64,000 nt of DNA, from positions 220,098 through 284,097 of the forward strand of contig CAVULX010000002.1 in assembly GCA_963742415.1 (NCBI GenBank), given 5' to 3'. The notes under the pieces were generated by a model. The model had not been told where the DNA came from, made no database searches, and worked only from the letters and a program-made list of their open reading frames with translations. Of this stretch, positions 25,946 through 47,151 are shown one piece after another; the first letter of the stretch is position 1; every line of letters begins with the position of its first letter. Both the position numbers and the translations under genes were made by a program. This DNA is from an uncultured Parachlamydiaceae bacterium. Lineage in GTDB: Bacteria; Chlamydiota; Chlamydiia; Chlamydiales; Parachlamydiaceae.

Positions 25946-25981
25946 CCGGAGTCGAACCGACGACCTTCGCATTACGAATGC
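25946..25981 (-). repeat. att core, left: fragment of tRNA-Thr(CGT) 3' half
   Basis: CCGGAGTCGAACCGACGACCTTCGCATTACGAATGC, identical to 44285-44320. Reverse complement shows the anticodon arm GCA-TTCGTAA-TGC and T-loop GGTTCGACTCC. Confidence 0.9.
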
Positions 25982-26097
25982 GGCTCCTCCGGGCAATGTC
26001 AAGTCATCTCACAGTAGCTGACACGAGAGCAGGATAACTCATCTTTTCTTTAGAGTCTATCGTCATTTGATGTGATTTCGATTGGTTTATCGCCCCT

Positions 26098-26121
26098 ATT
26101 TGGTCCACCATTGGTCCGCGG
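26098..26121 (+). promoter_or_regulatory. Putative integrase arm-type sites (tandem TTGGTCC)
   Basis: ATTTGGTCCACCATTGGTCCGCGG matches 44171-44194 at 22/24 positions. Confidence 0.65.
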
Positions 26122-26269
26122 ATTATGCAATACCCTTTTTCATAAAATATGCCTATTTAGGTATATCAAAGACAAAGTTACTCAACTAACCAGTTGTAAG
26201 CCCCGGAAGTGTACTATGTATGTAGTCGGAGTAAAGATGAATGGAGATGCGTTTTAGCAAATGAGTTTG

Positions 26270-29200
26270 TTAGAAAGATACCCTTGGCCAAGGCTGTTCG
26301 GACGCAATATCTGGATGGCGTGGCTCATTGGTAATGCGTCCATGCTCATCTCGCAATTTCTCAATCTTATTCAGGCATGCCTCTGCTAGAACAGCTTGTG
26401 GTCCTTCTGCTGTCGATATTGCAAACAATTTTTTACGAAATTCCACCAACGGGACGCTAAACTGCTCAAACGCGCCGGGCCAATCAAGCGAAGGCCGTTG
26501 GCCTATTGCCAGCTTTTCGATCGCCCTACTAAGCCGCTCATCGTAAGGCTGGTTAGCAACGGCAAGGCTGTGGATAAGTGCTAAAACGGAAGGCATATCG
26601 GCTATGTCTATAAGAGCATTCTCAAGAATTCTCTTCGGCCCTCCGTTAGCCATCTTTTCATAGCGCTGAAATATTTTATCACGTAGCGCCGGAAATTTTA
26701 GTGTTAGGTTAGCGAGTTGTTCCGACAACAACCAACTCTCTTTTCTACCGCGCTCACCCTGCACTTTATCTTCAAAAATCAAATCAAAAACGGTCCAGGC
26801 CGCTTCTTCCGTTTCCAGACTTATCATAGCATCAAGCCAATCACGCTCTTGCATCATTTCCGGATTACGCTCTGCTAATGCTTTAAGCACCTGTAATGCT
26901 TCGGCATGCGGGCTATGTCCCAGCGCTATTAGCAATCGACGGAAATGGTAGGAATAGCAGTATTTATTCGGCAATAAATCGAGCAGCTCAAGAACTGCTA
27001 AAGGACGATTGGAGAAGGCAAATAATTCTATCCATCCCATTACTTCACCTTGCCTATCTTCAAGTCGCCACGGCTCCTTTTTTCCCAGCTCTAATAACTC
27101 ATGGAATCCGGCAAGCAGCATATCGACTGAGAGAACTTCACCCGCTATTGCCACAGTAGTGAATAGCTCCAGCTTAACGCTGTATGGTTGCGGCAATTTA
27201 AACAGCTCGGCTATTTCTTGATTTTTGCTTCCAAAGGGCATGCTTAAGCCGATTTTCGCCAACTTAAGAGCATGTTGTTGCAAAGCCGATGCGCTATCAG
27301 GCTTACATAAGGTTCTCACCACTTCAAAGATGGTCTCGGAAAATTCGCATGTCGGTAGAGCGTTGCGCATATCTTCAAGGGAGAGGCGGCGAGTTTTCAC
27401 ATTGGAAAAATCATGCCATCCGAAGAATCGCTTATCTTTGCTGGATGGGTGATTGCGATTCCAAATTTCCAGAAGAACACATGCCGCATCTATGCCAAAG
27501 GGTATATCTGGCAAATATTCTTTCATCAATAATACCACGCTATCATCGCCGATAGCAGCAAATGCTCTGCTATATAGAAGCGTATAGCATATGTGTGCAC
27601 GAGAATCGCTGCGCCTGTTTGTTGTCTTTATTTCCTCAAGTTCTCGAGAACGTCCTGTAAAGTCGGCCTCCAATAATCTGTGCAAATCGGAAACAAATTG
27701 AGATTGTCCTAGGCGTCCTATGGCTTGGGCAACATCGACAAATTGATGTCGGTTTGTATCAGGCGCTGTAAGCATGATTTGCACCCAGTGCTTTATCACA
27801 ACAACGAATTGTTTTTTGACATCGGTACTTACTGTAAATGGCTTCTTTTCTTGTTCCCTACCATAACATACTACAAGTTCGGCCATCATTTTAATACGAT
27901 GCGGCTTGTCGGTGTTCGCTCGTTCAAGCAATGCGATAAAGAAGCTGGTTTGACGTGAACAGGCAATCGCATTCTTCAAACGATGATATTCTTGTCGCGC
28001 AGGTTCGGATAATTGCTTACCCTTTACCAGATACTCGTCAGTGAGTGTAAAAAGAGTATCCATCATTTTGCCAACCGTTATTGGACCTACAATGCTATAA
28101 GCAGCGCTTGCTATATTTTCAGGGGTTGCTTTATTAAGCGCTGCGTCAGCGATAGGTCCATCATCTAGAGAAGCCGTATTTTTCAGCCACTCATGGGCTC
28201 TCAATGGTAGCTCTAAACCACTGGCAATTCTGTGGATTATGCCCGCTGTTACAGCTTCTGGATAAACCTTAAAAGCATTGTTAATGGCTACACGCTCGTG
28301 ATTGCCTTTAATTGGAAAATCCGGAGATTGAATCAGCTGCGTAATATGCTCAGCAGCATTCATTTCCACTAGCTGACCTTCCGTTAAATACCGAATAATC
28401 TTTATTACATCGGTTTCGCGGGTTATTAATGTCTGTCGCATAGCCTTAAGATGGGCATTTAGCACCGGATCAAGTATCTTTTCAGGATAACCTTTTCGAG
28501 CTATGCATTCCCATACTTCATCCGAAGCGGTTCGTAAAATATCAGCAACATGACGATCTGCTCGACGGAATTGGAGTGATTGCAAAATTTTTACAATGAC
28601 AGTCGGACTCTTATCGTTCTTCGCGACACCAGCAGCAAGTTCCATTCCATCAAAACCACTGCGATATCCAATTTCTGCGACGACATCCCCACGTATTTCT
28701 TCTGGTAATGTTGCCAGTTGTTTTGCCACATCTGGTCCTAGCACGGAAGGCCGAAAGCGTTGCGCCGCTTGGAGGGCTCTTAAATAGACTTGGTTATCAG
28801 GACACGAAATTAGCGGCCATACAAATTCAGCAAACTCAGGGCGGCCTGTTGAAATCATAAACTGCACGGCACGATCTACCTTGTCCAATACATGCCAACG
28901 TTTCGCAAAATTTACGACCTTTTCACTTATATGTGACCATACTTCTGGCTTGGAGCGATAAATCATTTTAGCCGCAAGCATCGGATCAATGCTAAGTGTA
29001 TCGAGAACTGCCACCGCAACCGCTTTTGCTCCCTCGACATTTTTAGATAAACGTTCACAGGCAAATAAGGCTGATTCTTCCCAAGCCGACCAATTAAGCA
29101 CATCAGTATTAAGCATTCTTCGAGCTTCGGTGTTTCCTTGTGCAGCATCTGTCATCAAACGCTCAACTTCAAAAGACGCATACCACTCCTGAAATTGTTG

Positions 29201-30664
29201 GTGTTGGAATGAGACACTATCAGCGCCCCGAACAAGGGAATGTGTATTAACTAGAACATCTAAAACGATAGGGGGCTGGAAGGGCGTAAGAATTTGCTTA
29301 TGCGCTTGAAGGGTGATACATACATCACTTATTGCCCGCCATGCATTTTCTTCCGAAAGTGTAGTAGTCGCGGCCCGGTTTGCCTCGACTGCTAAACCGA
29401 TAAGTATTTGCTTATGACAACCTAAAAGCTCAGTACGGAGAATCTCGGCCTTTTCTGGTGCACTCTCATGCTGGGTAACGAAATTACTCAACAATGCTTC
29501 CTTGGTTTTGGGAGAGGTAGCTCCGGGTATGGTTGCAAGCATTGCAGTAAGATAGAGCGGGATGGAAACTAACTCGCGCACACCTGGCGTTCGCCAAGCT
29601 TGATCTACAAGCGCTTCGCCCTCCTTACCACGAATTTTGCGGGCAAGTTCTAATTGCTGTTCATCAGAAAGCGGTTCAATTTCGATGATAGCGCCGGGGA
29701 TAGGTATTGCCTGTCGCCGCGTGCCGATAACAATGCCTAATTGTGTAAATTCCCGCCTTAGTGTTTTCAGGTCATTCAACGCGCGTTTTCTAGCATCGGG
29801 ATTTAATTCATTCCAGCCATCGAGCAATAGTACTAAACGACCATGGTAAGCTACTTGCATAAAGTGCTGAGGCTGGAAAGTGTTAAAGGCGTTGCGACGG
29901 GCAAGAAACTCAAAAAAACTTTCCTGCCGATCAGACCATTCACCGAGTGGCACGAATGTGGCGATTTGATCACCATTAATAATGCTACTAGCCAGTTGTA
30001 TAAGCGTAGTAGTTTTACCCGTTCCTGGAGGTGATATAAAGCAAACTCCCTCGGCCGCACTGACTGCTTTTGCTACACCATCAAGCGTAACATTGATTTT
30101 TTGGGCATTGGTTAAAAGCTTGATATCTAACGAAATAACATGCGAAGGCCATTCCCGGGCATTCTGAAATGCAGAAATATCATTGGCTGCTGCTTTCTGC
30201 ATACGTGCTACAATGCTTTCGATATCGTCTTCCACTGGCAATCTAAGATTGCTTAAAAATTCCTTGTCAGCTTCATCAAGCTGCATCACAGTGACATGAC
30301 GTGCCGCGTTAGAAGTTGCCATCGCTTTGAATGCACGTGCCACAGCATCCTGTTTCCATGTATTAAGCAGCTCAACCGGAAACCTACTTTCATCTTTATC
30401 GATTTTATCTGCACAAATGGCGCAAAGCCAGATACCGTTTGAGATGTTTTTCCGAGTTTCTGAAGCAAGACTGGGGTCGTAACGTGGCCCTCCTGGGGCA
30501 GCTGCTGTAATATGCGCTGCCTTACCAATATTAACAGCTTTTTCCTCGTCTAATGATGGGCCAGAAGTCGAAAGCATGCAGTCAGGATTTGAGCAAAGAT
30601 GCCCTGCGCGACTTTCAAGAATTCGTTTTATCTTTGCTGTAAAATTATCACGATTGTCACGCAT
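26270..30664 (-). CDS. HNH-like nuclease fused to NACHT/STAND NTPase with long helical C-terminus
   Basis: RAGHLCSNPDC..GKAAHITAAAPGGPRYD..NGIWLCAICADKID; Walker A SPPGTGKTT; Walker B LLLDGWNE; IPLYL; FQHQQFQEWYA. Confidence 0.85.
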   Translation of the reverse strand: MRDNRDNFTAKIKRILESRAGHLCSNPDCMLSTSGPSLDEEKAVNIGKAAHITAAAPGGPRYDPSLASETRKNISNGIWLCAICADKIDKDESRFPVELLNTWKQDAVARAFKAMATSNAARHVTVMQLDEADKEFLSNLRLPVEDDIESIVARMQKAAANDISAFQNAREWPSHVISLDIKLLTNAQKINVTLDGVAKAVSAAEGVCFISPPGTGKTTTLIQLASSIINGDQIATFVPLGEWSDRQESFFEFLARRNAFNTFQPQHFMQVAYHGRLVLLLDGWNELNPDARKRALNDLKTLRREFTQLGIVIGTRRQAIPIPGAIIEIEPLSDEQQLELARKIRGKEGEALVDQAWRTPGVRELVSIPLYLTAMLATIPGATSPKTKEALLSNFVTQHESAPEKAEILRTELLGCHKQILIGLAVEANRAATTTLSEENAWRAISDVCITLQAHKQILTPFQPPIVLDVLVNTHSLVRGADSVSFQHQQFQEWYASFEVERLMTDAAQGNTEARRMLNTDVLNWSAWEESALFACERLSKNVEGAKAVAVAVLDTLSIDPMLAAKMIYRSKPEVWSHISEKVVNFAKRWHVLDKVDRAVQFMISTGRPEFAEFVWPLISCPDNQVYLRALQAAQRFRPSVLGPDVAKQLATLPEEIRGDVVAEIGYRSGFDGMELAAGVAKNDKSPTVIVKILQSLQFRRADRHVADILRTASDEVWECIARKGYPEKILDPVLNAHLKAMRQTLITRETDVIKIIRYLTEGQLVEMNAAEHITQLIQSPDFPIKGNHERVAINNAFKVYPEAVTAGIIHRIASGLELPLRAHEWLKNTASLDDGPIADAALNKATPENIASAAYSIVGPITVGKMMDTLFTLTDEYLVKGKQLSEPARQEYHRLKNAIACSRQTSFFIALLERANTDKPHRIKMMAELVVCYGREQEKKPFTVSTDVKKQFVVVIKHWVQIMLTAPDTNRHQFVDVAQAIGRLGQSQFVSDLHRLLEADFTGRSRELEEIKTTNRRSDSRAHICYTLLYSRAFAAIGDDSVVLLMKEYLPDIPFGIDAACVLLEIWNRNHPSSKDKRFFGWHDFSNVKTRRLSLEDMRNALPTCEFSETIFEVVRTLCKPDSASALQQHALKLAKIGLSMPFGSKNQEIAELFKLPQPYSVKLELFTTVAIAGEVLSVDMLLAGFHELLELGKKEPWRLEDRQGEVMGWIELFAFSNRPLAVLELLDLLPNKYCYSYHFRRLLIALGHSPHAEALQVLKALAERNPEMMQERDWLDAMISLETEEAAWTVFDLIFEDKVQGERGRKESWLLSEQLANLTLKFPALRDKIFQRYEKMANGGPKRILENALIDIADMPSVLALIHSLAVANQPYDERLSRAIEKLAIGQRPSLDWPGAFEQFSVPLVEFRKKLFAISTAEGPQAVLAEACLNKIEKLRDEHGRITNEPRHPDIASEQPWPRVSF

Positions 30665-30930
30665 AAGGTATTTCTAGCCGATTATATAGTTTATTATCGA
30701 AGTAACAGTATTCTAAGACAAAAGAAAGTTGTCTCGCCGATTTGATTCAAACCGCGACATCATAACCACGATGTACTTGATCTGGGCAACTTCATGTCAT
30801 TTTAGAGTGATTGACACGAAAATAGGATACCCCATTTTTTCTTTAGAGTCTACCGTGGGTTGATGGCATTTCGATCAGTTTGGTATCTTTATTGAGCCGG
30901 ACATCAATTTTATTGTTAGAGTTTTTCCTG

Positions 30931-30959
30931 TTGCATAAATATGCTCATTTAGGCATAAT
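30931..30959 (+). promoter_or_regulatory. higBA promoter with overlapping palindromic operator
   Basis: TTGCAT-17 bp-CATAAT; inverted repeat TATGC-N8-GCATA at 30940-30957. Confidence 0.55.
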
Positions 30960-30985
30960 AAGATTAGAAAGATAGAGGACATCTA

Positions 30986-31342
30986 ATGAAACGACTTTTC
31001 TGGATTGGATCGAGCCGCGAAGACCTCAAGTTATTTCCTGATGAAGTTCAAGATGAAATGGGACATGGCTTATATCTTGCGCAAATGGGTGATCGGCATA
31101 ACCATGCGAAGACTCTTAGTGGGTTAGGCAATGCCAAAGTGATTGAGCTTCGAGAAAACGACAGATCGGGAACTTATCGAGTGATTTATACAGTTGAAAT
31201 GACGGAATTCATTTTTGTACTGCATGCCTTTCAGAAAAAATCGAAGAGCGGCATCGCAACGCCTAAGCAAGAGATCGATTTGGTTAAGCGTCGTTTAAAA
31301 GAAGCTGACGCCCTTTATAAAGAATTAAAAGGAGAAAAGTAG
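30986..31342 (+). CDS. higB: RelE/HigB-family toxin (Gp49-like)
   Basis: WIGSSREDLKLFP, TYRVIY, VLHAFQKKS. Confidence 0.9.
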   Translation: MKRLFWIGSSREDLKLFPDEVQDEMGHGLYLAQMGDRHNHAKTLSGLGNAKVIELRENDRSGTYRVIYTVEMTEFIFVLHAFQKKSKSGIATPKQEIDLVKRRLKEADALYKELKGEK

Positions 31343-31344
31343 TT

Positions 31345-31707
31345 ATGAAAAAAAAGATCGTATACGAAGAAAGCTCCGGAAATGTATTTGCTGATTTAGG
31401 TATTGAAAATCCTGAAGAAGCTTTAGCAAAATCCGAGCTAGCTCGCCAAATTGCTAAGCTTATTAAGAAGAAAAAACTCACTCAAAAACGAGCTGCTGAA
31501 ATTTTAGGTATTGATCAACCAAAAATTTCTGCTTTGATTCGAGGAAGATTAAGAAGTTTTTCTTTAGAGCGCCTTATTCGTTTTCTAAATGAATTAGGTC
31601 AAGATGTTAGCATCATGATTAGCCCTGCAAAATCACAGTCAGAGCGGGGTAGCACATGGATTGGAGAATCCCATTCAAATACACGAATAGCTGCTTTGGG
31701 AAGATAA
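31345..31707 (+). CDS. higA: HigA-family XRE antitoxin
   Basis: SSGNVFADLG, LTQKRAAEILGIDQPKISAL, FSLERL. Confidence 0.9.
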   Translation: MKKKIVYEESSGNVFADLGIENPEEALAKSELARQIAKLIKKKKLTQKRAAEILGIDQPKISALIRGRLRSFSLERLIRFLNELGQDVSIMISPAKSQSERGSTWIGESHSNTRIAALGR

Positions 31708-31719
31708 TAAGGAAATAAA

Positions 31720-32178: not shown

Positions 32179-32265
32179 CAACCCAGGGATTTTAGAATTT
32201 TTATTAACAAATATTGCGTGGGCATATTATTAATAGGATTTTGAGACATCACTGATTTGATATTT

Positions 32266-33126
32266 TCATTTTTGTGGGCTATCTTCAAAATCTCTTCTCA
32301 TAATCTCATGCAGTGTTTTACCTTCATCATTCTTCCAGTCTATCCATCCATTTGCTCTACGTCCTAGAACAACTCCAGCAGCCTGCGAAGGCGATGGAAA
32401 TAGATAGTCGGTCAGAAATATGAGTTGATCACCTTGTTGCTCAAGAATCCCCATGGCTTTTAGTTGTTCTCTGGCACTTTTTAAGGTAGATCCCGCACTG
32501 TCAGTGGTTGTTATACAAGCATGAGACCCTTTAAATACAACGAATCCATCCGCAACCTTCTCTCCTTTAGCATTAGCTTTCCCACTTTTACAACATACAT
32601 GACGTTGCTTCAATTCAGTTGTAAGCCTTTCAAAAATAGGAAAATCAAGCGTTGATAATAGCAGAGAGATTGTTTCAAACATCTCTAAGAGATCGGCTCT
32701 AACGGACTCGGAAACGAACGGCTCTGAAGGACTCAATCGATTTGTAAGACGTCCCTGACCTATTTGCTCGATCTCATTACAACAAAACCATTCCAAAAAC
32801 CGAATTTGACACTTAGTCAATTCATCTGTTTTGGATACTATCACAATCGCCGTATTCCATTCCTTGTCGCTGTTATGATGCTGTTTTAAACGATCCAAGC
32901 AATCCTCTGATTCTCCAACATAGACTGGGGTTCTGGCATCATCAGAATCACCAAAAAGAAAATAAATACCTGAACGCGAGAGTTCTGGACGCGTATACGC
33001 CTCCTTTAGATCTGAACGAGGGACATATATGGCAATAGGAATGCGAGAAGTAACCTGAGCAATCTTTAGTCCTCGAGGTTTGCCTGTAGGGAGAAAGAGC
33101 TGAATAGTTTTAGGTGTAGGCTTCAT
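32266..33126 (-). CDS. GIY-YIG nuclease with DUF4357-like C-terminal domain
   Basis: SGIYFLFG..VYVGESE..RLKQH; FPSPSQAAGVVLGRRANGWIDWK. Confidence 0.85.
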   Translation of the reverse strand: MKPTPKTIQLFLPTGKPRGLKIAQVTSRIPIAIYVPRSDLKEAYTRPELSRSGIYFLFGDSDDARTPVYVGESEDCLDRLKQHHNSDKEWNTAIVIVSKTDELTKCQIRFLEWFCCNEIEQIGQGRLTNRLSPSEPFVSESVRADLLEMFETISLLLSTLDFPIFERLTTELKQRHVCCKSGKANAKGEKVADGFVVFKGSHACITTTDSAGSTLKSAREQLKAMGILEQQGDQLIFLTDYLFPSPSQAAGVVLGRRANGWIDWKNDEGKTLHEIMRRDFEDSPQK

Positions 33127-33850: not shown

Positions 33851-33987
33851 TTCAGATATTAAAATATATAATTAACATTACAAATTATTTCAAATAATTG
33901 TTCTATTTGCAATAAACGCATAATTATACTACCATTGTTCTGTTTTAATCAACGTTTCTTGTTGATTTGCAAAGACATGGATGTCGA

Positions 33988-36648
33988 ATGAATATTTGTA
34001 AGACCGAAGAAAATATTAGGAAATTAGCAGATAATTTTAATGAAACAACTTTTATCTATGATCTGCTCTTAGCCTACGGAAAACCAAAAGCCGCAATAAC
34101 GCGCTTGCAAAAATCTTACAATTTATCGAAAAGAAATAATGAAGTTATTTGGAAAAAAAATCTTTGTTTTAGAAGAGTTAGCGAAAACGATCTATATAGT
34201 GAAATCGATAATTTAAATAACGATTCGAATATTCTAAAACACTCTCCGCGTTTTATTATTGTCACTGATTATAAAAAAATTCTTGCTACCGATACAAAAA
34301 CAAAAGATACTTTAGACATCTTCTTCAACGAACTCGGTGATAATTTTGATTTTTTTCTCCCTTGGGCCGGCTTCGAGAAAACAAGATCCAAGAGTGAAAG
34401 CTTAGCTGATATTAGGGCCGCAGAACAAATGGCCAAATTATATGATGAGATTAAAAAAGATAATCCATGGGCTGAGAAAAAAGCGCTTCATTCCCTAAAC
34501 GTTTTTCTTTCTCGTCTATTATTTTGCTTCTTCGCAGAAGATACAACCATTTTTGAGAAAGGATTATTTAGTAGCTCAATCGCTTCTCATACTCTAGAAG
34601 ATGGCAGTGATCTTAATAGTTATCTTGACAGGTTATTTGAGGCTTTAAATTCCGAAAACAAATCTCGATTCCCTAAGTATCTTCAAATATTTCCATATGT
34701 TAATGGAGGTTTATTTGCAGAAAAACACCCAGTGCCCAGATTTACTCGCCGTTCGCGCAAAATTCTTCTTGAATGTGGGGGGCTGAATTGGTCATCGATT
34801 AATCCCGACATTTTTGGTTCCATGATTCAGGCCGTTGTTGATTCAAATCAACGTGGGGAAATGGGAATGCACTATACCTCAGTTCCAAATATCATGAAAG
34901 TCATAGAACCACTGTTTTTAGGTGAACTTTATGACGAATTTGAAAAATCGAAAGGCAACCAAAAAAAATTAGAAAAAATATTGGTCCGATTATCTCAGAT
35001 AAAAATTTTCGACCCCGCTTGCGGTTCAGGGAACTTTCTAATTGTCGCCTACAAGGAATTACGAAGCCTCGAAATGAAAATTATCAAGCACCTTCAAGGA
35101 TTTACCACTCGTCTTCCACTTTCGAATATTAAACTTTCTCAATTCTATGGAATCGAAATTGACGACTTTGCTCATGAGGTGGCCATGCTTTCATTATGGC
35201 TGATTGACCACCAAATGAACCAATCATTTAAAATTGCTTTTGATCGAACAAGGCCTTCTTTGCCACTCAAACAAGGCGGCCATATTATTTGCGGAAACGC
35301 CACTCGATTAAATTGGGACGAAGTTTGTCCTAAAGACCATACTTCGGAAGTATATCTAATCGGAAATCCTCCTTATAGGGGGTCATCTCTCCAATCTGAA
35401 GAACAGAAAGATGATATGGCTTTAGCATGTTCTGGCATCAAGAATTATAAAAATCTTGATTACATTACATGCTGGTTCTTTAAGGGAGCAAAATATCTAG
35501 ATAAATGTCCTAAATCAAAATTGGCTTTTGTGACAACGAGTTCGATTTGCCAAGGAGAACAAGTGGCTCTCTTATGGCCTCCCATTTTTAGTAACCACTT
35601 AGAAATTGGATTTGCGCATCAGCCTTTTAAATGGCTTAACAACGCAAGAAGAAACGCTGGTGTAATTTGTTCTATAATAGGAATTAGACATTACTCAAAT
35701 CAAACTAAACTAATCTATAAGAATGATCTCGTTCAAATTGTTGACAATATAAACCCGTACCTGATGCCTGGGAATAATACGATAATTAAAAAAAGAAATA
35801 ATCCAATTTCTTCATTACCGCAAATGAGCTACGGAAATAAAGCTGTTGATAACGGTAGTCTTATTCTTTCAGAATCTGAAAGAATTGATCTTGTCACCAG
35901 AAATCCTACTTCAAAAAAAATTATAAAGAAGCTAGCCGGGTCGGCCGAGTTTATTAGAGGAACAGATAGATGGTGTTTGTGGATTACCGATGACGACCTC
36001 TCTATTGCCTGTGGAATTCCTGAGATAAAAAGACGACTCGCAAACGTGAGAGATTTTCGTCTCAAAAGCCGCAAAAAAGCAACCATCGAAATATCAAATA
36101 CACCACATCAATTCGGCGAAATTCGGTATAATGGTTCAAGCTCTATTATCATTCCAAGAGTTTCCTCCGATCGCCGAGAATTTATTCCTATTGGGTTCCT
36201 AGATAAGAACACTATTATTTCAGACTCTGCTCAGGCAATATATAATGCCGAACCATATGTTTTTGGAGTAATTTCTTCCAAAATTCATCTTGCTTGGGTT
36301 AAAGCTACGGCAGGAAAATTAAAAAATGATTATAGATATTCGTCAGCATTAAGTTACAACACTTTCCCATTACCACCTCTCTCTGAAAAGCAAAAAGAAA
36401 TTATTAACATTCACGTTTTCAATATTCTTTCTGAAAGAGAAAAACATCCCGAAAAAACAATCGCCCAACTCTATGACCCAGCTAAAATGCCTAAAGGGCT
36501 AAAGGAAGCACACCGAGGCCTCGATATAGCCATTGAACGGTGTTATAGATCAAAACCATTTGAGAGCGATGGAGAACGATTAGAACATCTTTTTAAACTC
36601 TATGAAGAAATGACTCAAAACGAAAAAAAGAGGAAAAATCATGCCTAA
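33988..36648 (+). CDS. MmeI/YeeA(DnmA)-like N6-adenine DNA methyltransferase
   Basis: FLSRLLFCFFAED, YVNGGLF, GMHYTS, FDPACGSGNF, GNPPY, LYDPAKMP..L.EAH. Confidence 0.9.
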   Translation: MNICKTEENIRKLADNFNETTFIYDLLLAYGKPKAAITRLQKSYNLSKRNNEVIWKKNLCFRRVSENDLYSEIDNLNNDSNILKHSPRFIIVTDYKKILATDTKTKDTLDIFFNELGDNFDFFLPWAGFEKTRSKSESLADIRAAEQMAKLYDEIKKDNPWAEKKALHSLNVFLSRLLFCFFAEDTTIFEKGLFSSSIASHTLEDGSDLNSYLDRLFEALNSENKSRFPKYLQIFPYVNGGLFAEKHPVPRFTRRSRKILLECGGLNWSSINPDIFGSMIQAVVDSNQRGEMGMHYTSVPNIMKVIEPLFLGELYDEFEKSKGNQKKLEKILVRLSQIKIFDPACGSGNFLIVAYKELRSLEMKIIKHLQGFTTRLPLSNIKLSQFYGIEIDDFAHEVAMLSLWLIDHQMNQSFKIAFDRTRPSLPLKQGGHIICGNATRLNWDEVCPKDHTSEVYLIGNPPYRGSSLQSEEQKDDMALACSGIKNYKNLDYITCWFFKGAKYLDKCPKSKLAFVTTSSICQGEQVALLWPPIFSNHLEIGFAHQPFKWLNNARRNAGVICSIIGIRHYSNQTKLIYKNDLVQIVDNINPYLMPGNNTIIKKRNNPISSLPQMSYGNKAVDNGSLILSESERIDLVTRNPTSKKIIKKLAGSAEFIRGTDRWCLWITDDDLSIACGIPEIKRRLANVRDFRLKSRKKATIEISNTPHQFGEIRYNGSSSIIIPRVSSDRREFIPIGFLDKNTIISDSAQAIYNAEPYVFGVISSKIHLAWVKATAGKLKNDYRYSSALSYNTFPLPPLSEKQKEIINIHVFNILSEREKHPEKTIAQLYDPAKMPKGLKEAHRGLDIAIERCYRSKPFESDGERLEHLFKLYEEMTQNEKKRKNHA

Positions 36649-38571
36649 TATTGTCGATGTTTCTTATGCCCAAACAGGACAAAGCACAAAAACAAATTCG
36701 ATGGGCATGCGAGAAATGCAAGAAAGAGCGTATTTAGCCCGAGATGCTCAATATCTTCTCCTTAAATCCCCTCCAGCATCTGGAAAATCCCGCGCGCTCA
36801 TGTACATTGCACTCGACAAACTCCATCGTCAAGGACTCAAAAAGGTTATAGTTGCCGTTCCTGAGAAAGCAATCGGCGCTTCTTTTAGTAACACCGACTT
36901 AATATCTCAAGGCTTCTTTGCTAATTGGGAAACAAATCCTGAATATAACCTATGCATTCCTGGTGGTGAAGGGAATAAGGTACAAGCTTTTCTCAGGTTT
37001 TTAAATAACAATGAACGTACTCTTATCTGCACCCATGCTACTTTACGTTTTGCTTTTGAAGCATCCACTACAGAGAATTTTGACAATACTATTCTTGCAA
37101 TTGATGAATTTCACCATGTTTCAGCTGATGGAGATAGCCGTTTAGGTGAGCTCTTAAGAGCAATCATGGAAAAATCAAATGCTCATATTATCGCCATGAC
37201 CGGTTCATATTTCCGCGGAGATACAACTCCCATTCTTTCGCCAGAAGATGAAGCAAAGTTCGCAAAAGTGACCTATAACTATTATGAACAGTTAAATGGC
37301 TATACTCATTTAAAATCTTTAGGTATTGGATATCATTTCTATCAAGGGCGCTACACTTCCGCAATTGATGAAATTCTTGGACACCGACAAAAAAACAATC
37401 CTTCATATTCCTAATGTACAGTCCGGAGAATCCACAAAAGATAAGCATAATGAAGTGGACACTATTTTAGACAAAATAGGAACCGTTATACATCAAGATC
37501 AGGAAACTGGGGTCATCCATGTTACTCGTCACAACGATGGTAAAACGATTTTAAAAGTAGCCGATCTTGTTGATGACCGACCTCGTCGAGCGAAATAGAA
37601 TTGTCAACTTATCTACGGCAAATTAAGAGTCCTGATGATCTGGATATTATTATTGCTTTAGGTATGGCAAAAGAAGGTTTTGATTGGCCTTTCTGCGAAC
37701 ATTCATTAACAGTTGGCTATCGAGGATCTCTTACAGAAATTATTCAGATAATTGGTCGCTGCACTAGGGATAGCAGTAATAAAACTCATGCTCAATTTAC
37801 AAATCTTATTGCTCAGCCTGATGCAGCTGATGATCAAGTAAAGTTATCTGTCAACAATATGCTAAAAGCAATTACTTGTTCTCTTTTAATGGAACAGGTA
37901 TTGGCGCCTAACTTCAAATTTAAAACTAAACAATCAGAAGAAGATCAAGCGCAACCTGGTGAAATCAAAATTCGGGGATTTAAAGAACCAAGTTCAAAAC
38001 GCGTGAAGGATATTATTGAATCCGATTTGAATGATCTCAAAGCCAACATTTTACAGAGATGACACAATGATTAAAGCTCTACCAGGAAATCTCGATCCAG
38101 AGGTAATAAATAAAGTATTGATTCCTAAAATCATTAAGATAAAATACCCTGAGCTTACTGATCACGAAATTGAAGAAGTTCGTCAACATATTGTTGTTGA
38201 CTCTGTCGTTAAAAACGGAGAAATTGAAGTCACTGGGGACAAGCGATTTATTCGGATGGCTGGCCAATTTGTAAATATTGATGACTTGCATATTGATCTT
38301 ATTGACAGAATCAATCCTTTCCAAAAAGCCTTTGAAATTTTATCAAAATCAGTCACTTCGCAGGTCTTAAAAGCCATCCAAGAAACAATTGAAGCTAATC
38401 GTATCCAAATGACAGAAGAGGAAGCATTTCTTCTTTTGCCCAAAAATCAATCTATTTGTCAGGACCAATAATGGTCGAGAACCTAACTTAAATTCTCTAG
38501 ATGCTTTAGAACGCCGAATGGCAGAGGCTTTAGCCTACTTGCGACATCAACATCGTTCTCAAGGATTATAA
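36641..38571 (+). pseudogene. YeeB-like SF2 helicase, about four frameshifts (or sequencing errors)
   Basis: PPASGKS, DEFHH, MTGSYFRGD, MAKEGFDWP, QIIGR across ORFs 36641, 37326, 37601 and 38031; ends RMAEALAYLR..GL*. Confidence 0.8.
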
Positions 38572-38572
38572 T

Positions 38573-39730
38573 ATGAATCAAGAGGAACTACTAAAATTGA
38601 TTCTAGAGGATGAATTTGGGCTGCTTAAAGTTAAACAAAAAACTACAAAAAACATAAATGCGAATGAGCGCCTTCATTTAAATTTTCAAGAAATTAATGA
38701 TTTTTTTCGCGAACATGGCCATTCCCCACAGCCAAATTCCCAAGATATGTCGGAATTCAAGCTGTACGAACGGTTAGCAACAATAAATTCAAACCCTGAT
38801 CATATCCAACAGTTAAAGGAGTATGACGACTTCAAGCTTTTAGAAAATGCTCATTCAATTAACTCAATTGAAGACATAATCTTAGCAGATGACTTTGGTC
38901 TGTTGAAAGAAGACCCTGAGAGCATTTTTCAACTTCGCCATGTTCCGAAAGAATTAACCACACCCGATTACATAGCGCAACGCGTGCCTTGCCTAGATTT
39001 CGATAAATTTGAACTGTTGTTCTGTCAATGTCAAGCTGACTTAGCTTCTGGAAAAAGAAAATTGCTCTCCTTTGCCATGGAACAGCAAATTAGTACTGGT
39101 GATTTCTATGTTCTTAGAGGAGTGCTTACATATGTCGCCAAAATAGGCGAGAATGAAAATATAAGTGGTAGGCCTAATCCTCGATTGCGTTGTATATTTG
39201 AAAATGGAACAGAGTCTGACATGCTTTTACGTTCTCTAGCGCGGGCGTTGTACAAAGATGGACGCCGAATTACTGAACACGCAGACAGGCTTCTTGATGG
39301 GTTGAGTAATAATAAGACCACTGACGATAAAGAGACTGGATATATATACGTTTTGAAATCACTAAGTAGTAACCCTGAGATTAAAAGTCTTATCAACCTT
39401 TATAAGATTGGTTTTTCACGAATTCGCGTTGAAGAACGCATTAAGAATGCGAAAAATGATCCCACCTACCTTCTTGCACCTGTGCAAAGAATTGCCGTAT
39501 ACGAATGTTATAATTTAAATCCTCAAAAATTTGAGCTCTTGCTTCATACTTTTTTTGGTCAAGTTTGTCTTAACTTAGATGTACATGACAGCAATGGACA
39601 TAGATATGTGCCAAGAGAGTGGTTTACAGCGCCTTTTGAAGTGATTGAACAAGCAATATCTCTCTTGCTAACCAAAGAAATTGTCAAATACAAATATGAT
39701 CCACTTTTACAGATGATTGTAAAAAAATAA
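38573..39730 (+). CDS. YeeC-like GIY-YIG (T5orf172) nuclease
   Basis: TGYIYVLKS..LYKIGFS..VEERI, FENGTES, PREWF. Confidence 0.85.
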   Translation: MNQEELLKLILEDEFGLLKVKQKTTKNINANERLHLNFQEINDFFREHGHSPQPNSQDMSEFKLYERLATINSNPDHIQQLKEYDDFKLLENAHSINSIEDIILADDFGLLKEDPESIFQLRHVPKELTTPDYIAQRVPCLDFDKFELLFCQCQADLASGKRKLLSFAMEQQISTGDFYVLRGVLTYVAKIGENENISGRPNPRLRCIFENGTESDMLLRSLARALYKDGRRITEHADRLLDGLSNNKTTDDKETGYIYVLKSLSSNPEIKSLINLYKIGFSRIRVEERIKNAKNDPTYLLAPVQRIAVYECYNLNPQKFELLLHTFFGQVCLNLDVHDSNGHRYVPREWFTAPFEVIEQAISLLLTKEIVKYKYDPLLQMIVKK

Positions 39731-39784
39731 AGTCCGAGGATCAACAATTCAGAAGATTTTAGCTATGGTAATTCCGGTAAAATT

Positions 39785-40243
39785 TCAGTAAACAAATGGT
39801 AAAGTTTTCTCTTTCAAAACATTCATTTTGAGACTTTCATCAATATCGTATTCCTTCGTGTGAAATTTAAGATTCCCAACCTCTGATTGAATTTTTTGAT
39901 TCATTTGGAAAACAATATTGACCAGATCCTTAACACTGATCTCATCAAAGGATCTTTCTTTCAGTTCTTCTAGAGCTTTGCTTAAGATGATAGAAAAAGA
40001 CTCAAGGCGATTACGTTTAGATAAGCTGTATTCGGCGATGATTGATTCAAATTCAAAGTATCTAAGATTGGCTATCTCATTTTTTAGCTCATCGTTCCAT
40101 TTGATCAAGGTGGGTTTAGAAATTTCCAGCTCTTTAGATATTTTATCATAAGAAAGACCCTTGGCTCGCAATTCAATAAATCGCTTCTTTTCGTTTTGAG
40201 TTTTCATATCTTTCTCCGCGAATGCATTTGTTTCACGTTTCAT
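39785..40243 (-). CDS. Small N-terminal HTH DNA-binding protein
   Basis: FIELRAKGLSYDKISKELEISKPTLIKW. Confidence 0.65.
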   Translation of the reverse strand: MKRETNAFAEKDMKTQNEKKRFIELRAKGLSYDKISKELEISKPTLIKWNDELKNEIANLRYFEFESIIAEYSLSKRNRLESFSIILSKALEELKERSFDEISVKDLVNIVFQMNQKIQSEVGNLKFHTKEYDIDESLKMNVLKEKTLPFVY

Positions 40244-40273
40244 TTGCTACAGGGGTGAAACATGAAACACTTT

Positions 40274-41983
40274 CTATTGTCTTAGTTTTCGAGTAACGGT
40301 CGATTTGGATACACCAAATTCCTCTCCGATTTCTTCATGCGTTTTTCCCTGGCTCTTTAGTCTTTTTATTTCTGCAATAAGCATTTCATTATTCTTATTG
40401 CTTTCAAAAATTGACCATTCCCAAGTTTGTTTTCCATCGGGCAAATCAACAAGTTTAACATGTATGCTTTCAACATCATTTCCAAGCCAGGAACGATGTT
40501 TCTCAAAAGAAAGTACAAAACAAGCGCCATCCTCAGCTTTATAGTTTGGAGGCCTATCCAACTTGATTACATAGTCTAGAGCATCCTCTCTACGGCTGCT
40601 TCCTCGAGGTCCATTATTTTTATTTGCATGATGAATAAAAACCACTGCTTTGCCTTGACGTCGTTGTTTAAGAGCCCAAGCTAAGACAGGCAACCAGCTT
40701 TCCCCTTCATTTTCAACTCCACTTGTTACCCAACAAGATAAATTATCTACGATAATCACGTCCACATCCTCAATAAGAGAATCTAGCATCTTCTGTTCTT
40801 TCAAAGAACCAAGGTCTGGAAGTGTCTGCTCCTGTAAAAATGAGTTCACCAATTTAAAATGATTTTCTAAGGGTTTGATTTCCTGACTGTAATAAATTTT
40901 CTTCATCCGCTCTTTCATAGTAAAGATAGACATTTCTCCATCTAAATAAAGAACCTTGCATGGTTTAGGAGCTCGGAATTTCAAAAAACTTGTGCCAGAT
41001 GATAAGGCGTATGCAATACTCAACGCAAAATATGTTTTTCCAATACCTCTAGGAGCATAAATCATGCCCAATGATGATTTTGTAATGAAAGGCTCTAAAA
41101 AACATTCTGGAAGCTCTATTTCCATCTTCAAAAGATTTTCTATAGAAACTGCTTTGATAATATTGTTTAAAATTTTTCCTTCAGCTACTTTGAAAGGCTC
41201 TATAATTACCACAGCTTCTTCTATGACCTTTTTAAGATCTATAGAGGTGTGTCCTTCTTTTAACCAATCGGTAATATCTTTTCCATTCTTGGGAACAACT
41301 TCATATCCTGGAAGATTAACAAGTCTTAAGCTTTTTACGCAGTCTTTCAATTGATTAATAATATTTTCACGATGATCTACTCCTGTATTATCATAATCAA
41401 AGAAAAGAATCACATCGGCATCTCTAAGCACTTCTGAATGCATTTTCTGCCATTTAGTTTTTCCACCGCCAGTATCGTTTGTGGTAGCCACATACCCAAG
41501 TTTTCGTAGAGTTTCCACATCTTTTTCTCCCTCCACAATCGCAACTTGGCCTCCTTCTTGTATAGCAACAATTACTTCAGGCAGGTTGTAGATTACCCTC
41601 GGCGAATCTTTTACACCCTTAAGCCATTTTCCATTCTCAAATTTTTCAAAGAAAAATTCTTTTGAAGATGTTCTTACCTTTCGATAGAGGACTTTACCAT
41701 CTCTATCATGATAATAATAATGCTGGTTTGGGAACGAAGTGTGCAAATAGTTATTGAAAAGCTGGCTGGGCTTTATGCCCAGCTCTTGACATATTGTTTC
41801 AAAAGTACAGCCAGCATGACAATTGAATAAAATCTTTCCATTATCTCCCTCTGCAACAGATAAACTTGGCTTCTTGTCTTTATGTTGACTACATGGACAT
41901 CTAGCAGAATATCCCCTGCCACTTGCTTTAGGCTTATGTCCAGTTTTTGCTTCAAGGATGGAAAGAATTTCTTCTAATATCAT
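40274..41983 (-). CDS. Primase-helicase replicase (Zn finger + TOPRIM + RepA/AAA_25 helicase + HTH)
   Basis: CPCSQHKD..PSL..CHAGC; IVEGEKD..DYD; APRGIGKT; IIVDNL; FIHH..RGSS. Confidence 0.88.
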   Translation of the reverse strand: MILEEILSILEAKTGHKPKASGRGYSARCPCSQHKDKKPSLSVAEGDNGKILFNCHAGCTFETICQELGIKPSQLFNNYLHTSFPNQHYYYHDRDGKVLYRKVRTSSKEFFFEKFENGKWLKGVKDSPRVIYNLPEVIVAIQEGGQVAIVEGEKDVETLRKLGYVATTNDTGGGKTKWQKMHSEVLRDADVILFFDYDNTGVDHRENIINQLKDCVKSLRLVNLPGYEVVPKNGKDITDWLKEGHTSIDLKKVIEEAVVIIEPFKVAEGKILNNIIKAVSIENLLKMEIELPECFLEPFITKSSLGMIYAPRGIGKTYFALSIAYALSSGTSFLKFRAPKPCKVLYLDGEMSIFTMKERMKKIYYSQEIKPLENHFKLVNSFLQEQTLPDLGSLKEQKMLDSLIEDVDVIIVDNLSCWVTSGVENEGESWLPVLAWALKQRRQGKAVVFIHHANKNNGPRGSSRREDALDYVIKLDRPPNYKAEDGACFVLSFEKHRSWLGNDVESIHVKLVDLPDGKQTWEWSIFESNKNNEMLIAEIKRLKSQGKTHEEIGEEFGVSKSTVTRKLRQ

Positions 41984-42189
41984 TTTTTACAAGCCTCTTG
42001 TGATTTGGCCCATTCCATGAAAGCCCTCTCATCAATGAGAACTCGTCCATTTGCTTTGACAACAACTCCTTCAAAATTTTTTCTTTTTGCGTTTGCTACC
42101 AGATGCCTTAAACCTCCTATCGTCGGCCAAATATGAAAATCATTCCATTTGGTTAGGGGAATAAGTTCGGATTTCAGTTTATCGTTCAT
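41980..42189 (-). CDS. Small excisionase/AlpA-like DNA-binding protein
   Basis: 69 aa; GRVLIDERAFMEW; AAGGAG RBS; overlaps the primase start. Confidence 0.6.
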   Translation of the reverse strand: MNDKLKSELIPLTKWNDFHIWPTIGGLRHLVANAKRKNFEGVVVKANGRVLIDERAFMEWAKSQEACKK

Positions 42190-42347
42190 AACAGCTCCTT
42201 ATGTTGCGTTAATGTTAATTCACGCACATAATTAGAGCTGGACCGCATATTATTTAGTTACACTCCAGTCAAAAAAAAATGTAGCTTCCAACAATAAGAC
42301 CATTTCTACCTTCTTCAAGCATATGTGGAGTTCTTTTAACCCGAAGA

Positions 42348-42971
42348 TCATTGCAACAGGGGCGCAAGTTTTTGTTTTATTACAAGTTTTTCTTCGTCAG
42401 TCGTCTTCTTGTTATATAGGGAAATATCTGGCTTTAACCATTTTCTTAGAGTGCGTTCACCTGGTAGATCGTCAGCAATACCTGATTCCTGGGCTATTTC
42501 TATAACAATCTCCAGACAAGCACGAGGGCAGATAAATAATATGGCTTTTGCTAAAGTACGAAATTGATCGATCCTGATTTTCTCTTCTTCTTTTCTATAG
42601 GATTCTTTAGATCTTTTTTTACTGACTTTGGCAATTAATTCTACCAAATCAGGATCCAATTGAATGAGAGGATAATTATTGGCCCATTCCATCCACTCCT
42701 GACAAGATAATCTATCAGGTCCTCCATCCATCACGAGTTTTAGAGAACGAGTTATTATTGCATTTGCTACCAGTTGAGAAACGTAACTACCAAATCGAGT
42801 AGATGTGATCTGATCAAACGATCTGTAATCATCAGCAACACTGGGAGCATACTTCAAAAATACGCAAGTTGCTTCTGAAGAAGTCCACCATCCTTTTTCA
42901 ATCCAAATCCGATATAGTTGTATACGTGTCTTGAAAGGGATGCTAAAATTGATTTCGCAGTTATCTTTCAT
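42348..42971 (-). CDS. Hypothetical protein, possible C-terminal HTH
   Basis: Start reassigned to MKDNCEI, overlapping the integrase stop; PGERTLRKW. Confidence 0.55.
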   Translation of the reverse strand: MKDNCEINFSIPFKTRIQLYRIWIEKGWWTSSEATCVFLKYAPSVADDYRSFDQITSTRFGSYVSQLVANAIITRSLKLVMDGGPDRLSCQEWMEWANNYPLIQLDPDLVELIAKVSKKRSKESYRKEEEKIRIDQFRTLAKAILFICPRACLEIVIEIAQESGIADDLPGERTLRKWLKPDISLYNKKTTDEEKLVIKQKLAPLLQ

Positions 42972-44080
42972 AATTTTCTCCGAAAAGTTCTTGATCAAGT
43001 TTTTCGACCATTTTTGATTTGTATTCTGTTGAAATATGAGCATATCGCGCTGTGCTCCTAGCATCTTTATGACCAAGAAGAGCTCCAATATCATGCAAAC
43101 CTATTCCATTCATGCGATGGTAGGATGCCGTTGTATGCCTCAAATCATGCCGACGAAAATTTTTTATATTAGCTCTTTTTAAAGCAGCACGCCAAGCAGA
43201 ACGAGTATCATAAGGTTTTTGAGGATCATCAGGAGATGGAAAAAGCAAGGCAGTTAGGATTGCTATTTTCGGACAGATGCTCTATCAATAAATTGTAGGC
43301 ATAGCCTTTTAATGGAATAAACCGGGGTTCTCCATTTTTAGAACTTACGAAGAATGATTAGTTGCTGGTCGCGCTTGATATCACCAATTTTCAATCCCAT
43401 GATTTCACCGTCTCTCATACCTGTAGATAAGGCGAGCACTGTGATCGTCAGCAATATAGGGCATTTACTGTTCTTTGTTTCTTTAAGAAGTCGACTTAGC
43501 TCAGCTTGAGATAAGTAACGTTGTCGAGCATTTGAAACTGAGGGTTTGGAAATTTTTTTAATCGGGATTTTCAGAGATCCATTCCCATTCTTTCCAAGCA
43601 ATCGAAAAAAGATGAGATAATGAAGCCAGATATCTTACAACAGTTGCAGGAGCTAACTTACTTGCCTTCTTTTGCTTTCTCTTTTTCTAAAGCTAATAAG
43701 GCTTCTTTAATGTCAGAAGATCGAATAGAGGAGAATTTGATTTTCCCAAGTTGTTTTTCAAACCAATCAAGATGATATTCTCGATTTCTGGCATCATGCG
43801 CCTTTTTTGGGTAGCTCTTCTTCTTTGTATCTTTTGATTGCATCTGAAAAAGTTTTCTTATTATTCTTGATTATATTGGGATGCAATTCATCCAAAAAAG
43901 CATTTCGATCTTGTTCCAGCTAACCATTGTTTAGCTGACTTAAGATCTGAGGTTGTTTTGAAAACTTCTTTATGTCCCTTTTTTCTGAATCTGAGCTCGG
44001 AACTTCACAACATTTTTACTTGTAATTCGAATATCAATGCCTGGAGGCAGACTCTTTTTGAGAGCTTCAAGATCTTTCAT
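42961..44080 (-). pseudogene. int: Tyrosine integrase, several frameshifts (or sequencing errors)
   Basis: Fragments carry ALSTGMRDGEI, RHDLRHT, LLGH and TARYAH; N-terminal arm-binding-like region (KFRAQI). Confidence 0.85.
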
Positions 44081-44170
44081 TGTAACGACCCTATTTTTAA
44101 TGGTAAAAATTGGGTCAGCTACTGAACTGTTAACGAGACTTGCTGTAGGTTGCTGCTGCTTGCTGTCCTC

Positions 44171-44217
44171 ATTTGGTCCACCCTTGGTCCACGGCAGTGG
44201 CTTAGCCGATTGGTCCA
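44171..44217 (+). promoter_or_regulatory. Putative integrase arm-type sites (three TTGGTCCA)
   Basis: TTGGTCCA at 44173, 44184 and 44210. Confidence 0.65.
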
Positions 44218-44275
44218 AAAATGGAGGGCCAAATGAATCGCTTTCTGGCATACCTCTCAACAATTAAAAATGAAT

Positions 44276-44320
44276 TGCCCAAAGCCGGAGTCGAACCGAC
44301 GACCTTCGCATTACGAATGC
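44276..44320 (-). repeat. att core, right: 3' half of tRNA-Thr(CGT), not a complete tRNA
   Basis: Reverse complement GCATTCGTAATGCGAAGGTCGTCGGTTCGACTCCGGCTTTGGGCA; no D-arm or 5' acceptor strand upstream. Confidence 0.88.
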
Positions 44321-45299: not shown

Positions 45300-45315
45300 G
45301 TTTTTGATGATTTAA

Positions 45316-47122: not shown

Positions 47123-47151
47123 CAATATCCCAATAGTTTCTGAAATTATAA

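Follow-up and report, generated by a model that had tools for sequence, protein, structure and literature searches.

A probable fossil copy of a tRNA-targeting integrative island with defence cargo in a Parachlamydiaceae genome

Chlamydiota are obligate intracellular bacteria, and the routes by which they exchange genes are poorly understood. An 18.4-kb island bounded by tRNA-derived repeats in the genome of an uncultured Parachlamydiaceae bacterium therefore raises the question of what kind of element it represents and whether this copy can still move. We addressed this question computationally in a stretch of 64,000 nucleotides (the window; GenBank assembly GCA_963742415.1, contig CAVULX010000002.1, positions 220,098 to 284,097, corresponding to C2:220098-284097 of contig C2 in our numbering), to which positions refer unless a contig is named. 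A first-pass annotation, made from the sequence alone, had described the island as a helper-dependent phage satellite of the phage-inducible chromosomal island (PICI) type. We consider it likely that the island is instead a fossil copy of a tRNA-targeting integrative element, probably self-replicating, with exchangeable cargo directed against phages and other mobile genetic elements, and that its family is widespread in Chlamydiota.

The island is delimited by two identical 36-bp direct repeats (window 25946-25981 and 44285-44320) that enclose 18,375 bp, exactly the perfect tRNA-Thr(CGT)-derived repeats that the first-pass annotation had placed around 18.4 kb. A repeat pair of this length is expected about 4e-13 times by chance in a 64-kb window (about 2e9 position pairs over 4^36). 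Scanning the whole genome with ARAGORN located its sole tRNA-Thr(CGT) gene at C2:143452-143524 on the plus strand, and BLAST matched both repeats to this gene at 100% identity, the left one over tRNA positions 28-64 (37 bp, with the last 9 nt of the tRNA missing) and the right one over positions 29-73 plus one base (46 bp). Both repeats are oriented opposite to the true gene, and BLAST of the tRNA against the genome revealed two more tRNA-Thr fragments on the same contig (C2:157004-157050 and 160279-160324). Neither ARAGORN nor Rfam found a tRNA gene in the window, indicating that the island is bounded by two partial tRNAs, with a tRNA gene at neither end. That the right repeat is what remains of a decayed tRNA gene was considered and rejected, because the match begins at position 29, the same boundary as in the attachment (att) segments of other islands (positions 28-33), and because the DNA beyond is a copy of the end of another element, the remnant I2 described below, with no tRNA 5′ half.

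Just inside both ends lie clustered copies of the heptamer TTGGTCC (GGACCAA on the other strand), which are candidate integrase arm sites. The pair at the distal end stands at the same offset in the related islands of the Chlamydiota genomes that we call G095, G229 and G304, and four of the seven islands examined (this island and those three) have GGACCAA motifs at both ends with corresponding offsets; the motifs were not present at the ends of the remaining three, G392, G306 and I1, the last being a second island of the host genome. The window as a whole contains 8 copies of GGACCAA for 6.4 expected, which is not above chance, and the case for arm sites lies in their clustering and conservation. 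Comparisons by tblastx showed conservation of both ends of the island in G095 and G229.

How did partial tRNAs come to stand at both ends? The true tRNA-Thr(CGT) gene carries the island I1 and the remnant I2, each ending in a tRNA fragment. I1 measures 13.5 kb and contains an intact 350-aa integrase, an excisionase (Xis)-like homologue, Toprim and DUF3987 proteins, and Schlafen/AlbA_2-type cargo, while I2 is a 3.3-kb remnant. Outside the right repeat of the fossil island, two stretches match I2 in inverted orientation: window 44328-44455 corresponds to its last 128 bp (C2:160145-160272, 98.4% identity) and window 46900-47350 to part of its interior (C2:157727-158179, 96.7% identity); between these two I2-like stretches lies different cargo, a HEC-01-like AAA_21 and DUF4276 pair. 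Since the DNA beyond the right repeat is I2-like, this repeat marks an att inside a tandem array. The displaced piece of the array appears to run, in order, I2-like remnant, att, island and truncated att, and to lie now about 100 kb from tRNA-Thr(CGT) in the opposite orientation. The stretch found ahead of tRNA-Thr in G095 and G229 maps in the host genome to C2:194578-203355, inverted, showing that the region has been rearranged. I2 itself encodes, at C2:158387-160056, a homologue of the DarG macrodomain antitoxin (PADLOC, 2.6e-124) beside a 212-aa open reading frame (ORF) that could be DarT.

To what extent this copy could still recombine depends on its integrase. The gene aligns in colinear order, at 84% nucleotide identity, with that for the 431-aa integrase which is intact in G095, and carries seven net single-base insertions relative to it, spread over approximately codons 90-334. 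The first-pass annotation was thus right that an integrase homologue is present, but no open gene remains, the coding sequence being split over three frames. Intact integrases were found in G095, G229, G304 and G319, and the best other integrase in the host genome, 36% identical, stands at the true tRNA-Thr in an island without the arm motif. All seven frame breaks (window 43256-43994) are single-base insertions, none of them in a homopolymer run, and three of the four frame changes in a helicase pseudogene of the cargo are also +1. Genome-wide sequencing error was rejected as the main cause of the frameshifts, as 11 frame changes are packed into about 3.2 kb, whereas the neighbouring ORFs of the island, about 13 kb in total, have none, and the flanking core gene is intact. 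The large ORFs beside the breaks are open (4.4-kb NACHT, 2.7-kb MmeI and 1.7-kb primase genes), and the open frame of the flanking core gene equals in length that of 19 relatives, indicating that the breaks are local and that there is no genome-wide error signature. With its integrase destroyed by seven frameshifts, the island is fixed in place.

The remaining backbone is better preserved. On the minus strand, going inward from the right repeat, the integrase is followed by a 248-aa ORF, a 69-aa ORF, a 569-aa primase-helicase and a 152-aa helix-turn-helix (HTH) protein; ORF and Pfam scans upheld the earlier reading of this order as integrase, hypothetical, xis-like, primase-helicase and HTH genes. 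The 248-aa ORF had no Pfam or PHROG match. The primase-helicase matched AAA_25 (9e-23), Toprim, Zn_ribbon_DnaG and HTH_23 in Pfam and PHROG 239, 'DNA primase/helicase' (1.6e-28), and is a fusion of Toprim and AAA_25 of the T7-gp4 type. The 69-aa protein gave no Pfam match at E<=0.01, no match at E<=10 in a profile search of PDB sequences and no significant Foldseek match in the PDB. Its AlphaFold (AF2) model, with a mean predicted confidence (pLDDT) of 83, folds as beta-alpha-alpha-beta-beta-alpha and is most like excisionases and MerR-type winged helices: VIA-align matched it to the putative excisionase 2kvv (Z 6.1), Tn916 Xis (Z 5.3), GIsul2 Xis (Z 5.2), Pukovnik Xis (Z 4.7) and RdfS (Z 4.5). 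Only 6 of 48,161 chains reached Z>=5, and all Z scores were under 8. The modelled fold suggests that the protein is Xis-like and may function as an excisionase. Pfam scans of 20 ORFs and PHROG scans of 10 gave no match to capsid, tail, large-terminase, relaxase or type IV secretion system (T4SS) families, in agreement with the first-pass annotation, which had reported no capsid, tail, relaxase or T4SS genes.

We then asked how far this backbone extends. The primase-helicase matched 41 of the 400 Chlamydiota genomes sampled, or about one in ten, in 35 of 212 genera and with the host included (E<=1e-10); near-full-length matches occurred at 27 places in 25 of these 400 genomes. The closest backbone relatives, with primase identities of 85%, 66% and 63%, are Chlamydiota of the same family or order and use the same tRNA. 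When the tRNA context of 10 relatives' regions was analysed, an intact tRNA was found on the integrase side in five, namely tRNA-Thr(CGT) in G095 and G229 and tRNA-Met(CAT) in G304, G392 and G306; partial tRNA copies adjoin three others (G319, G388 and G132a), and two were unresolved. In seven islands the att segment starts at about tRNA position 28-33 and runs to the 3′ end, and islands that could be delimited measure 11-22 kb. In the complete genome of G319, an intact element with a 431-aa integrase has a partial tRNA-Thr fragment on each side and a second integrase after it; tandem arrays were found in G319 and also in G306.

The only genes common to most copies are those for the integrase, the Xis-like protein and the primase-helicase, the 152-aa HTH protein being shared with G095 only. 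The cargo of G095 comprises a TOTE primase-helicase conflict system, a GNAT protein, an APH-like kinase and Bro-N, that of G229 a Type I restriction-modification (R-M) system, YgjP and an AbiU2-like HEPN protein, and that of G319 a Type I R-M system interrupted by insertion sequence elements. The same backbone therefore recurs in other Chlamydiota at tRNA-Thr(CGT) with different cargo, the check that the first-pass annotation had proposed, and it also occurs at tRNA-Met. That annotation had further allowed that homologous backbones might always carry conjugation or relaxase genes; none was present in the annotated ORFs of G095, G229, G319 and I1. A metagenome scan with the primase found three loci (64%, 42% and 24% identity), which did not include a 24.4-kb contig with 96-97% identical helicase and HTH proteins. 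No description of this island family came up in the open-access literature searched. The TOTE system of G095 (L049:2019-4850) consists of a 943-aa protein with AEP-TOTE primase, ResIII helicase and DUF559 parts (TOTE, 1e-96), with kinase-like genes adjoining.

We propose that in an intact member of this family the tyrosine integrase would recombine attP, which holds the tRNA segment from the anticodon stem to the 3′ end, with a tRNA gene by way of GGACCAA arm sites at both ends. The small Xis-like winged-helix protein would steer excision, and the T7-gp4-type primase-helicase would copy the excised circle. The downstream cargo module would be exchanged between copies, and repeated integrations at one tRNA would stack elements in tandem. 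The host copy would once have been a distal member of such a stack, a piece of which later moved about 100 kb from tRNA-Thr(CGT) and became inverted. Intact members may be transferred as satellites of some phage, in vesicles or, as we infer, by uptake of free circles by co-resident chlamydiae; neither a helper phage nor a conjugative system is indicated for the island. In the copies analysed in detail, tRNA targeting, a shared backbone and tandem stacking go together with the shuttling of NLR (nucleotide-binding, leucine-rich repeat)-like, R-M, DarTG, TOTE and other defence systems, and the family would be a tangible carrier of the accessory 'defensome' in environmental chlamydiae. Its intact relatives (e.g., G319 and G229) provide material for work on excision, replication and transfer, whereas the copy in the window leads nowhere and serves chiefly to illustrate how arrays decay and become scattered by rearrangement.

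Several points weigh against this account. The one-sided +1 spectrum of the integrase insertions is odd for natural decay, and a local assembly error behind the integrase frameshifts is possible, although an error leaves the 13 kb of intact neighbouring ORFs unexplained. Misassembly across the repeats shared by I2 and its variant copy (I2′) on C2 is also possible. The roles given to the primase-helicase in circle replication and to the Xis-like protein in excision derive from domain content only. Finally, the repeated, weak small-terminase (TerS)-like signals of the post-primase HTH protein would favour a satellite.

Could the island be, or recently have been, a PICI-like satellite that is excised and replicated when a tailed phage infects and is packaged in helper capsids with the post-primase HTH protein as small terminase? 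PMC10085698 lists an integrase, a regulator (alpA/merR/stl), a primase-replicase, capsid morphogenesis and a small terminase as PICI core components; the SatelliteFinder authors call the combination of int, AlpA and primase alone 'Type C' and ambiguous, and some bona fide PICIs (SaPIs) also do without a capsid-morphogenesis gene (PMC10085698). The island has a primase-replicase and an integrase homologue, here a pseudogene, and, as a candidate regulator, a 69-aa protein that lacks a sequence match in Pfam and the PDB and bears the weak structural likeness to Xis and MerR-type proteins given above (Z 6.1, 5.3 and 5.2). No head or capsid family was matched in the Pfam and PHROG scans that would represent capsid morphogenesis. 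Its layout of integrase, Xis-like protein, primase, small HTH protein and cargo without structural genes would fit a satellite, and a small HTH protein follows the primase in all five annotated copies, being of the HTH_23 type in this island, in G095 (by protein cluster) and in G319, HTH_Tnp_1_2 in G304 and DUF5681 in G229.

Whether this HTH protein is a small terminase is hinted at from several sides. The 152-aa protein matched PHROG 4102 (TerS) weakly, with an E value of 0.0059; 17 of the 43 members of its family matched this PHROG, and Pfam Terminase_5 matched 5 of the 43. Its AF2 model (pLDDT 85.6) consists of an HTH, a long helical hairpin and two strands, recalling the layout of small terminases; weak Foldseek rows in the PDB include the small terminases of Sf6, G20C and PaP3 (best E 0.67), about 10 of the top 50 rows in BFVD are named 'Terminase small subunit' (best E 9.6e-3), and its ESM-Atlas neighbours are partly viral. 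However, none of these likenesses is significant: no Foldseek match reached E<=0.001 in either PDB or BFVD, HTH regulators, many of them TetR-type, stand in the same lists with similar scores, and VIA-align returned generic helical hairpins only. The family had no tblastn relative in 50,697 phage records with three members as query, and none in IMG/VR with the family alignment. As a single sequence the primase-helicase had no match in IMG/VR, and its alignment found 545 distant relatives there (<=33% identity), generic phage primase-helicases that are uninformative about a helper.

A helper is equally hard to find. The host genome, which is 84% complete, gave no match to HK97 capsid (PF05065), TerL_ATPase (PF03354), the type IV coupling protein (T4CP; PF02534) or TraC_F_IV (PF11130). 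TerL_ATPase, the one large-terminase family searched, was confined to 2 of the 400 Chlamydiota genomes; none of the 41 genomes with the element has it. To our knowledge, the only characterised chlamydial phages are small single-stranded DNA microviruses. Phage terminase and tail genes are reported on some chlamydial plasmids by Köstlbacher et al. (PMC7846284), so a tailed chlamydial phage remains conceivable. The integrase of this copy is dead and its site lies away from the tRNA gene, and it therefore cannot be an active satellite; that it is a true or recent one at all we consider unlikely. The PICI label of the first-pass annotation was not supported, as a capsid gene is absent, a small terminase is weakly suggested and the remaining combination is the ambiguous 'Type C', nor was the double-stranded DNA helper that it implied. 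It is quite improbable, in our view, that the chlamydial int-Xis-primase islands in general are genuine satellites, with the post-primase HTH protein (HTH_23, HTH_Tnp_1_2 or DUF5681) as a divergent small terminase serving undiscovered tailed double-stranded DNA phages of amoeba-dwelling chlamydiae; if they were, the fossil copy would be the footprint of a hidden virosphere.

The island could also be a relaxase-less integrative mobilisable element (IME) that uses the F-like or plasmid-borne T4SS of Parachlamydiaceae or Simkaniaceae through an unrecognised origin of transfer (oriT). Conjugative T4SS islands and plasmids of environmental chlamydiae are described in PMC548262 and PMC7846284, islands with an oriT and no relaxase are said to be common elsewhere in bioRxiv 10.64898/2026.01.13.699239, and T4CP (PF02534) occurs in 40 of the 400 Chlamydiota genomes. 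Yet only 3 of the 40 further genomes with the element have a T4CP, where about 4 would be expected by chance, and the host genome lacks PF02534 and TraC_F_IV matches. No relaxase, T4CP or T4SS family was detected among the scanned ORFs of the island, G095, G229, G319 and I1; the Pfam scan of the island thus showed neither the relaxase that defines an IME nor the T4CP and mating-pair formation genes further expected of an integrative conjugative element. Mobilisation, moreover, needs no dedicated primase-helicase, and we regard this origin as very unlikely. A binning or assembly chimera, in which the island would be foreign to this chromosome or to this place, appears extremely improbable: the assembly is 84% complete, in four contigs, and the near-identical 128-bp and 453-bp repeats of I2 and I2′ on the same contig could mislead an assembler, but the island lies inside a 284-kb contig and has chlamydial genes to either side, the genome's GC content (0.41-0.42) falls within the island's range (0.36-0.45), its closest backbone relatives, with the primase identities given above, sit at the same tRNA in Chlamydiota that share its family or order, and the source names of its homologues are Chlamydiales and Parachlamydiales.

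If the island is a fossil integrative-replicative element, as we prefer, which known system does it resemble? Its closest analogues appear to be tycheposon- or PICI-like integrative-replicative islands, and in behaviour the Prochlorococcus tycheposon would come nearest. According to Hackl et al. (bioRxiv 10.1101/2020.12.28.424599), tycheposons are elements of 10-20 kb with an excisionase and a primase/helicase as hallmarks and with swappable cargo. Like them, the chlamydial islands combine a tRNA-targeting tyrosine recombinase with partial-tRNA repeats and bring their own primase/helicase and excisionase (I1 by means of a different pair, Toprim and DUF3987); older copies are pushed distally in tandem arrays, with fragmented integrases and stray partial tRNAs, contig C2 having five tRNA-Thr fragments, and no conjugation machinery is noted in either. 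A subset of tycheposons is described as PICI-like, with terS or a major capsid protein gene (bioRxiv 10.1101/2020.12.28.424599). The two differ in host (a marine cyanobacterium versus obligate intracellular Chlamydiota) and in cargo (nutrient uptake versus defence), and transfer in vesicles or capsids is reported for tycheposons; the likeness is one of layout and behaviour.

PICIs, as portrayed in PMC10085698, share with the island the order of integrase, small Xis/AlpA-type protein and primase-replicase, accessory or defence genes after the core, a similar size and, by that description, the lack of tail and lysis genes. They differ in that the island has no capsid-morphogenesis match, a weak TerS candidate and a primase of the T7-gp4 Toprim/AAA_25 type, and is known from its genes alone; more than 99.9% of PICIs are assigned to Proteobacteria and Firmicutes (PMC10085698). 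Pam100G of Protochlamydia amoebophila, according to PMC548262, is likewise a genomic island of an amoeba-associated chlamydia bounded by direct repeats, but it spans about 100 kb and carries an F-like tra system, whereas the present island has 18 kb, no transfer genes, a replication module and defence cargo. P4-like satellites resemble the island in their tRNA-targeting tyrosine integrase, small AlpA/Xis-type protein and primase-helicase, and differ in that Pfam and PHROG scans found no homologues of Psu, Delta, Sid or Epsilon in the island. The Toprim and DUF3987 pair of I1 is one that we take to be of the P4 type, and we know of no P2-like helper in Chlamydiota.

Coordinates of the island's features are collected in Table 1.

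Table 1. Features of the island and of the adjoining remnant, in window coordinates.
Feature	Position	Strand	Remarks
Distal att: partial tRNA-Thr(CGT), positions 28-64	25946..25982	-	37 bp, 100% to true tRNA
TTGGTCC arm-type motif pair, 11 bp apart, inside distal end	26098..26121	+	Candidate integrase arm sites
HNH-nuclease / NACHT NTPase / NCAB2 protein, 1464 aa, intact, bacterial NLR-like	26270..30664	-	NCAB2 8e-25, NACHT 2e-4
Toxin-antitoxin pair: Gp49/HigB-like toxin, 118 aa, and HTH_37 antitoxin, 120 aa	30986..31707	+	Gp49 5e-22, HTH_37 1.4e-28
ORF with hydrophobic stretches, 152 aa	31720..32178	+	No Pfam, PADLOC or PHROG match
GIY-YIG/DUF4357 protein, 286 aa, candidate defence gene PDC-S14	32266..33126	-	PADLOC PDC-S14 2.3e-96; DUF4357 1e-21
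PD-(D/E)XK (Cas4-like) nuclease, 246 aa	33110..33850	-	PDDEXK_1 8e-10; weak Cas4 models
MmeI-family Type IIG restriction-modification enzyme, 893 aa, intact	33967..36648	+	Five MmeI domains, 1.6e-104 to 3.6e-23
DEAD/DEAH helicase pseudogene beside methyltransferase	36641..38568	+	Split ORFs with DEAD/ResIII and Helicase_C matches; four frame changes
T5orf172/MUG113-domain (GIY-YIG-like) protein, 385 aa	38573..39730	+	MUG113 8e-13, T5orf172 6e-9
HTH_23 protein, 152 aa, directly downstream of primase-helicase	39785..40243	-	Regulator or weakly TerS-like
Primase-helicase, 569 aa, intact	40274..41983	-	CHC2 zinc ribbon, Toprim, AAA_25 RecA-type helicase, C-terminal HTH
Excisionase (Xis/recombination directionality factor)-like winged-helix protein, 69 aa	41980..42189	-	Overlaps primase start
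Hypothetical backbone gene, 248 aa	42348..43094	-	41% identical (4e-45) to same-position ORF in G319 element
Tyrosine integrase pseudogene	42979..44263	-	Phage_integrase N- and C-parts in separate ORFs; three frames
Three TTGGTCC arm-type motifs, inside tRNA-proximal end	44171..44216	+	Repeat and motif positions
Proximal att: partial tRNA-Thr(CGT), positions 29-73 plus 1	44275..44320	-	46 bp, 100%; without preceding tRNA 5′ half
Neighbouring remnant island, variant copy of I2, outside the island	44321..48097	-	I2 identity, Pfam and PADLOC

The roughly 14 kb of cargo proved by Pfam and PADLOC to be nearly all nuclease, NTPase, methyltransferase and toxin-antitoxin genes, as the first-pass annotation had read it. 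PADLOC assigned the 1464-aa protein to PDC-M68A (1e-26), with HNH 'Effector' models on residues 4-165, and the MmeI-family enzyme to REase_MTase_IIG (E=0, profile positions 22-911 of 912). On the methyltransferase side the families were as described earlier, but the adjoining helicase is split: its pieces lie in frames 2, 0, 2, 0 and 1, and it matches an intact 640-aa homologue (P0150) at 96% identity, or at 92-97% when taken piece by piece. The NACHT-HNH, MmeI-type R-M, PDC-S14 and toxin-antitoxin genes are still open, and the island presumably acts only as a chromosomal defence locus. Homologues of the R-M-linked 640-aa helicase that are 74-80% identical come from widely separated bacteria and carry source names such as Legionella, Fluoribacter, Micavibrio, Bdellovibrionales, Flavobacterium and Pseudomonas, a range that, judged from sequence comparison, indicates a highly mobile and conserved partner gene of MmeI-type enzymes.

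Window 44577-46401, in the neighbouring remnant, holds genes for an AAA_21 ATPase with weak matches to AbiLi, AriA and HEC-01A and for a DUF4276 protein (HEC-01B), which together are a candidate defence pair; of 46 other genomes of the family, only 3 had the ATPase. Direct repeats of 743 bp with 78.6% identity (window 23926-24662 and 48098-48828), made up of the 3′ end of a 482-aa gene and an ORF of about 130 aa, bracket a 23.4-kb segment (24663-48097) that holds an F-box-like gene, the island and the neighbouring remnant. The F-box-like gene is a 364-aa ORF adjoining the left repeat (window 24824-25918), whose N-terminal stretch resembles by eye what we take to be an F-box motif. The 482-aa flanking protein (window 22763-24211) is one of 11 paralogues in the genome, some of them in tandem, others including C3:898002-905046 and C4:1331509-1335039; outside the host, 4 of the 46 other genomes compared within the family gave matches, all of them weak (24-33% identity), and the 482-aa proteins appear to be a lineage-specific expansion.

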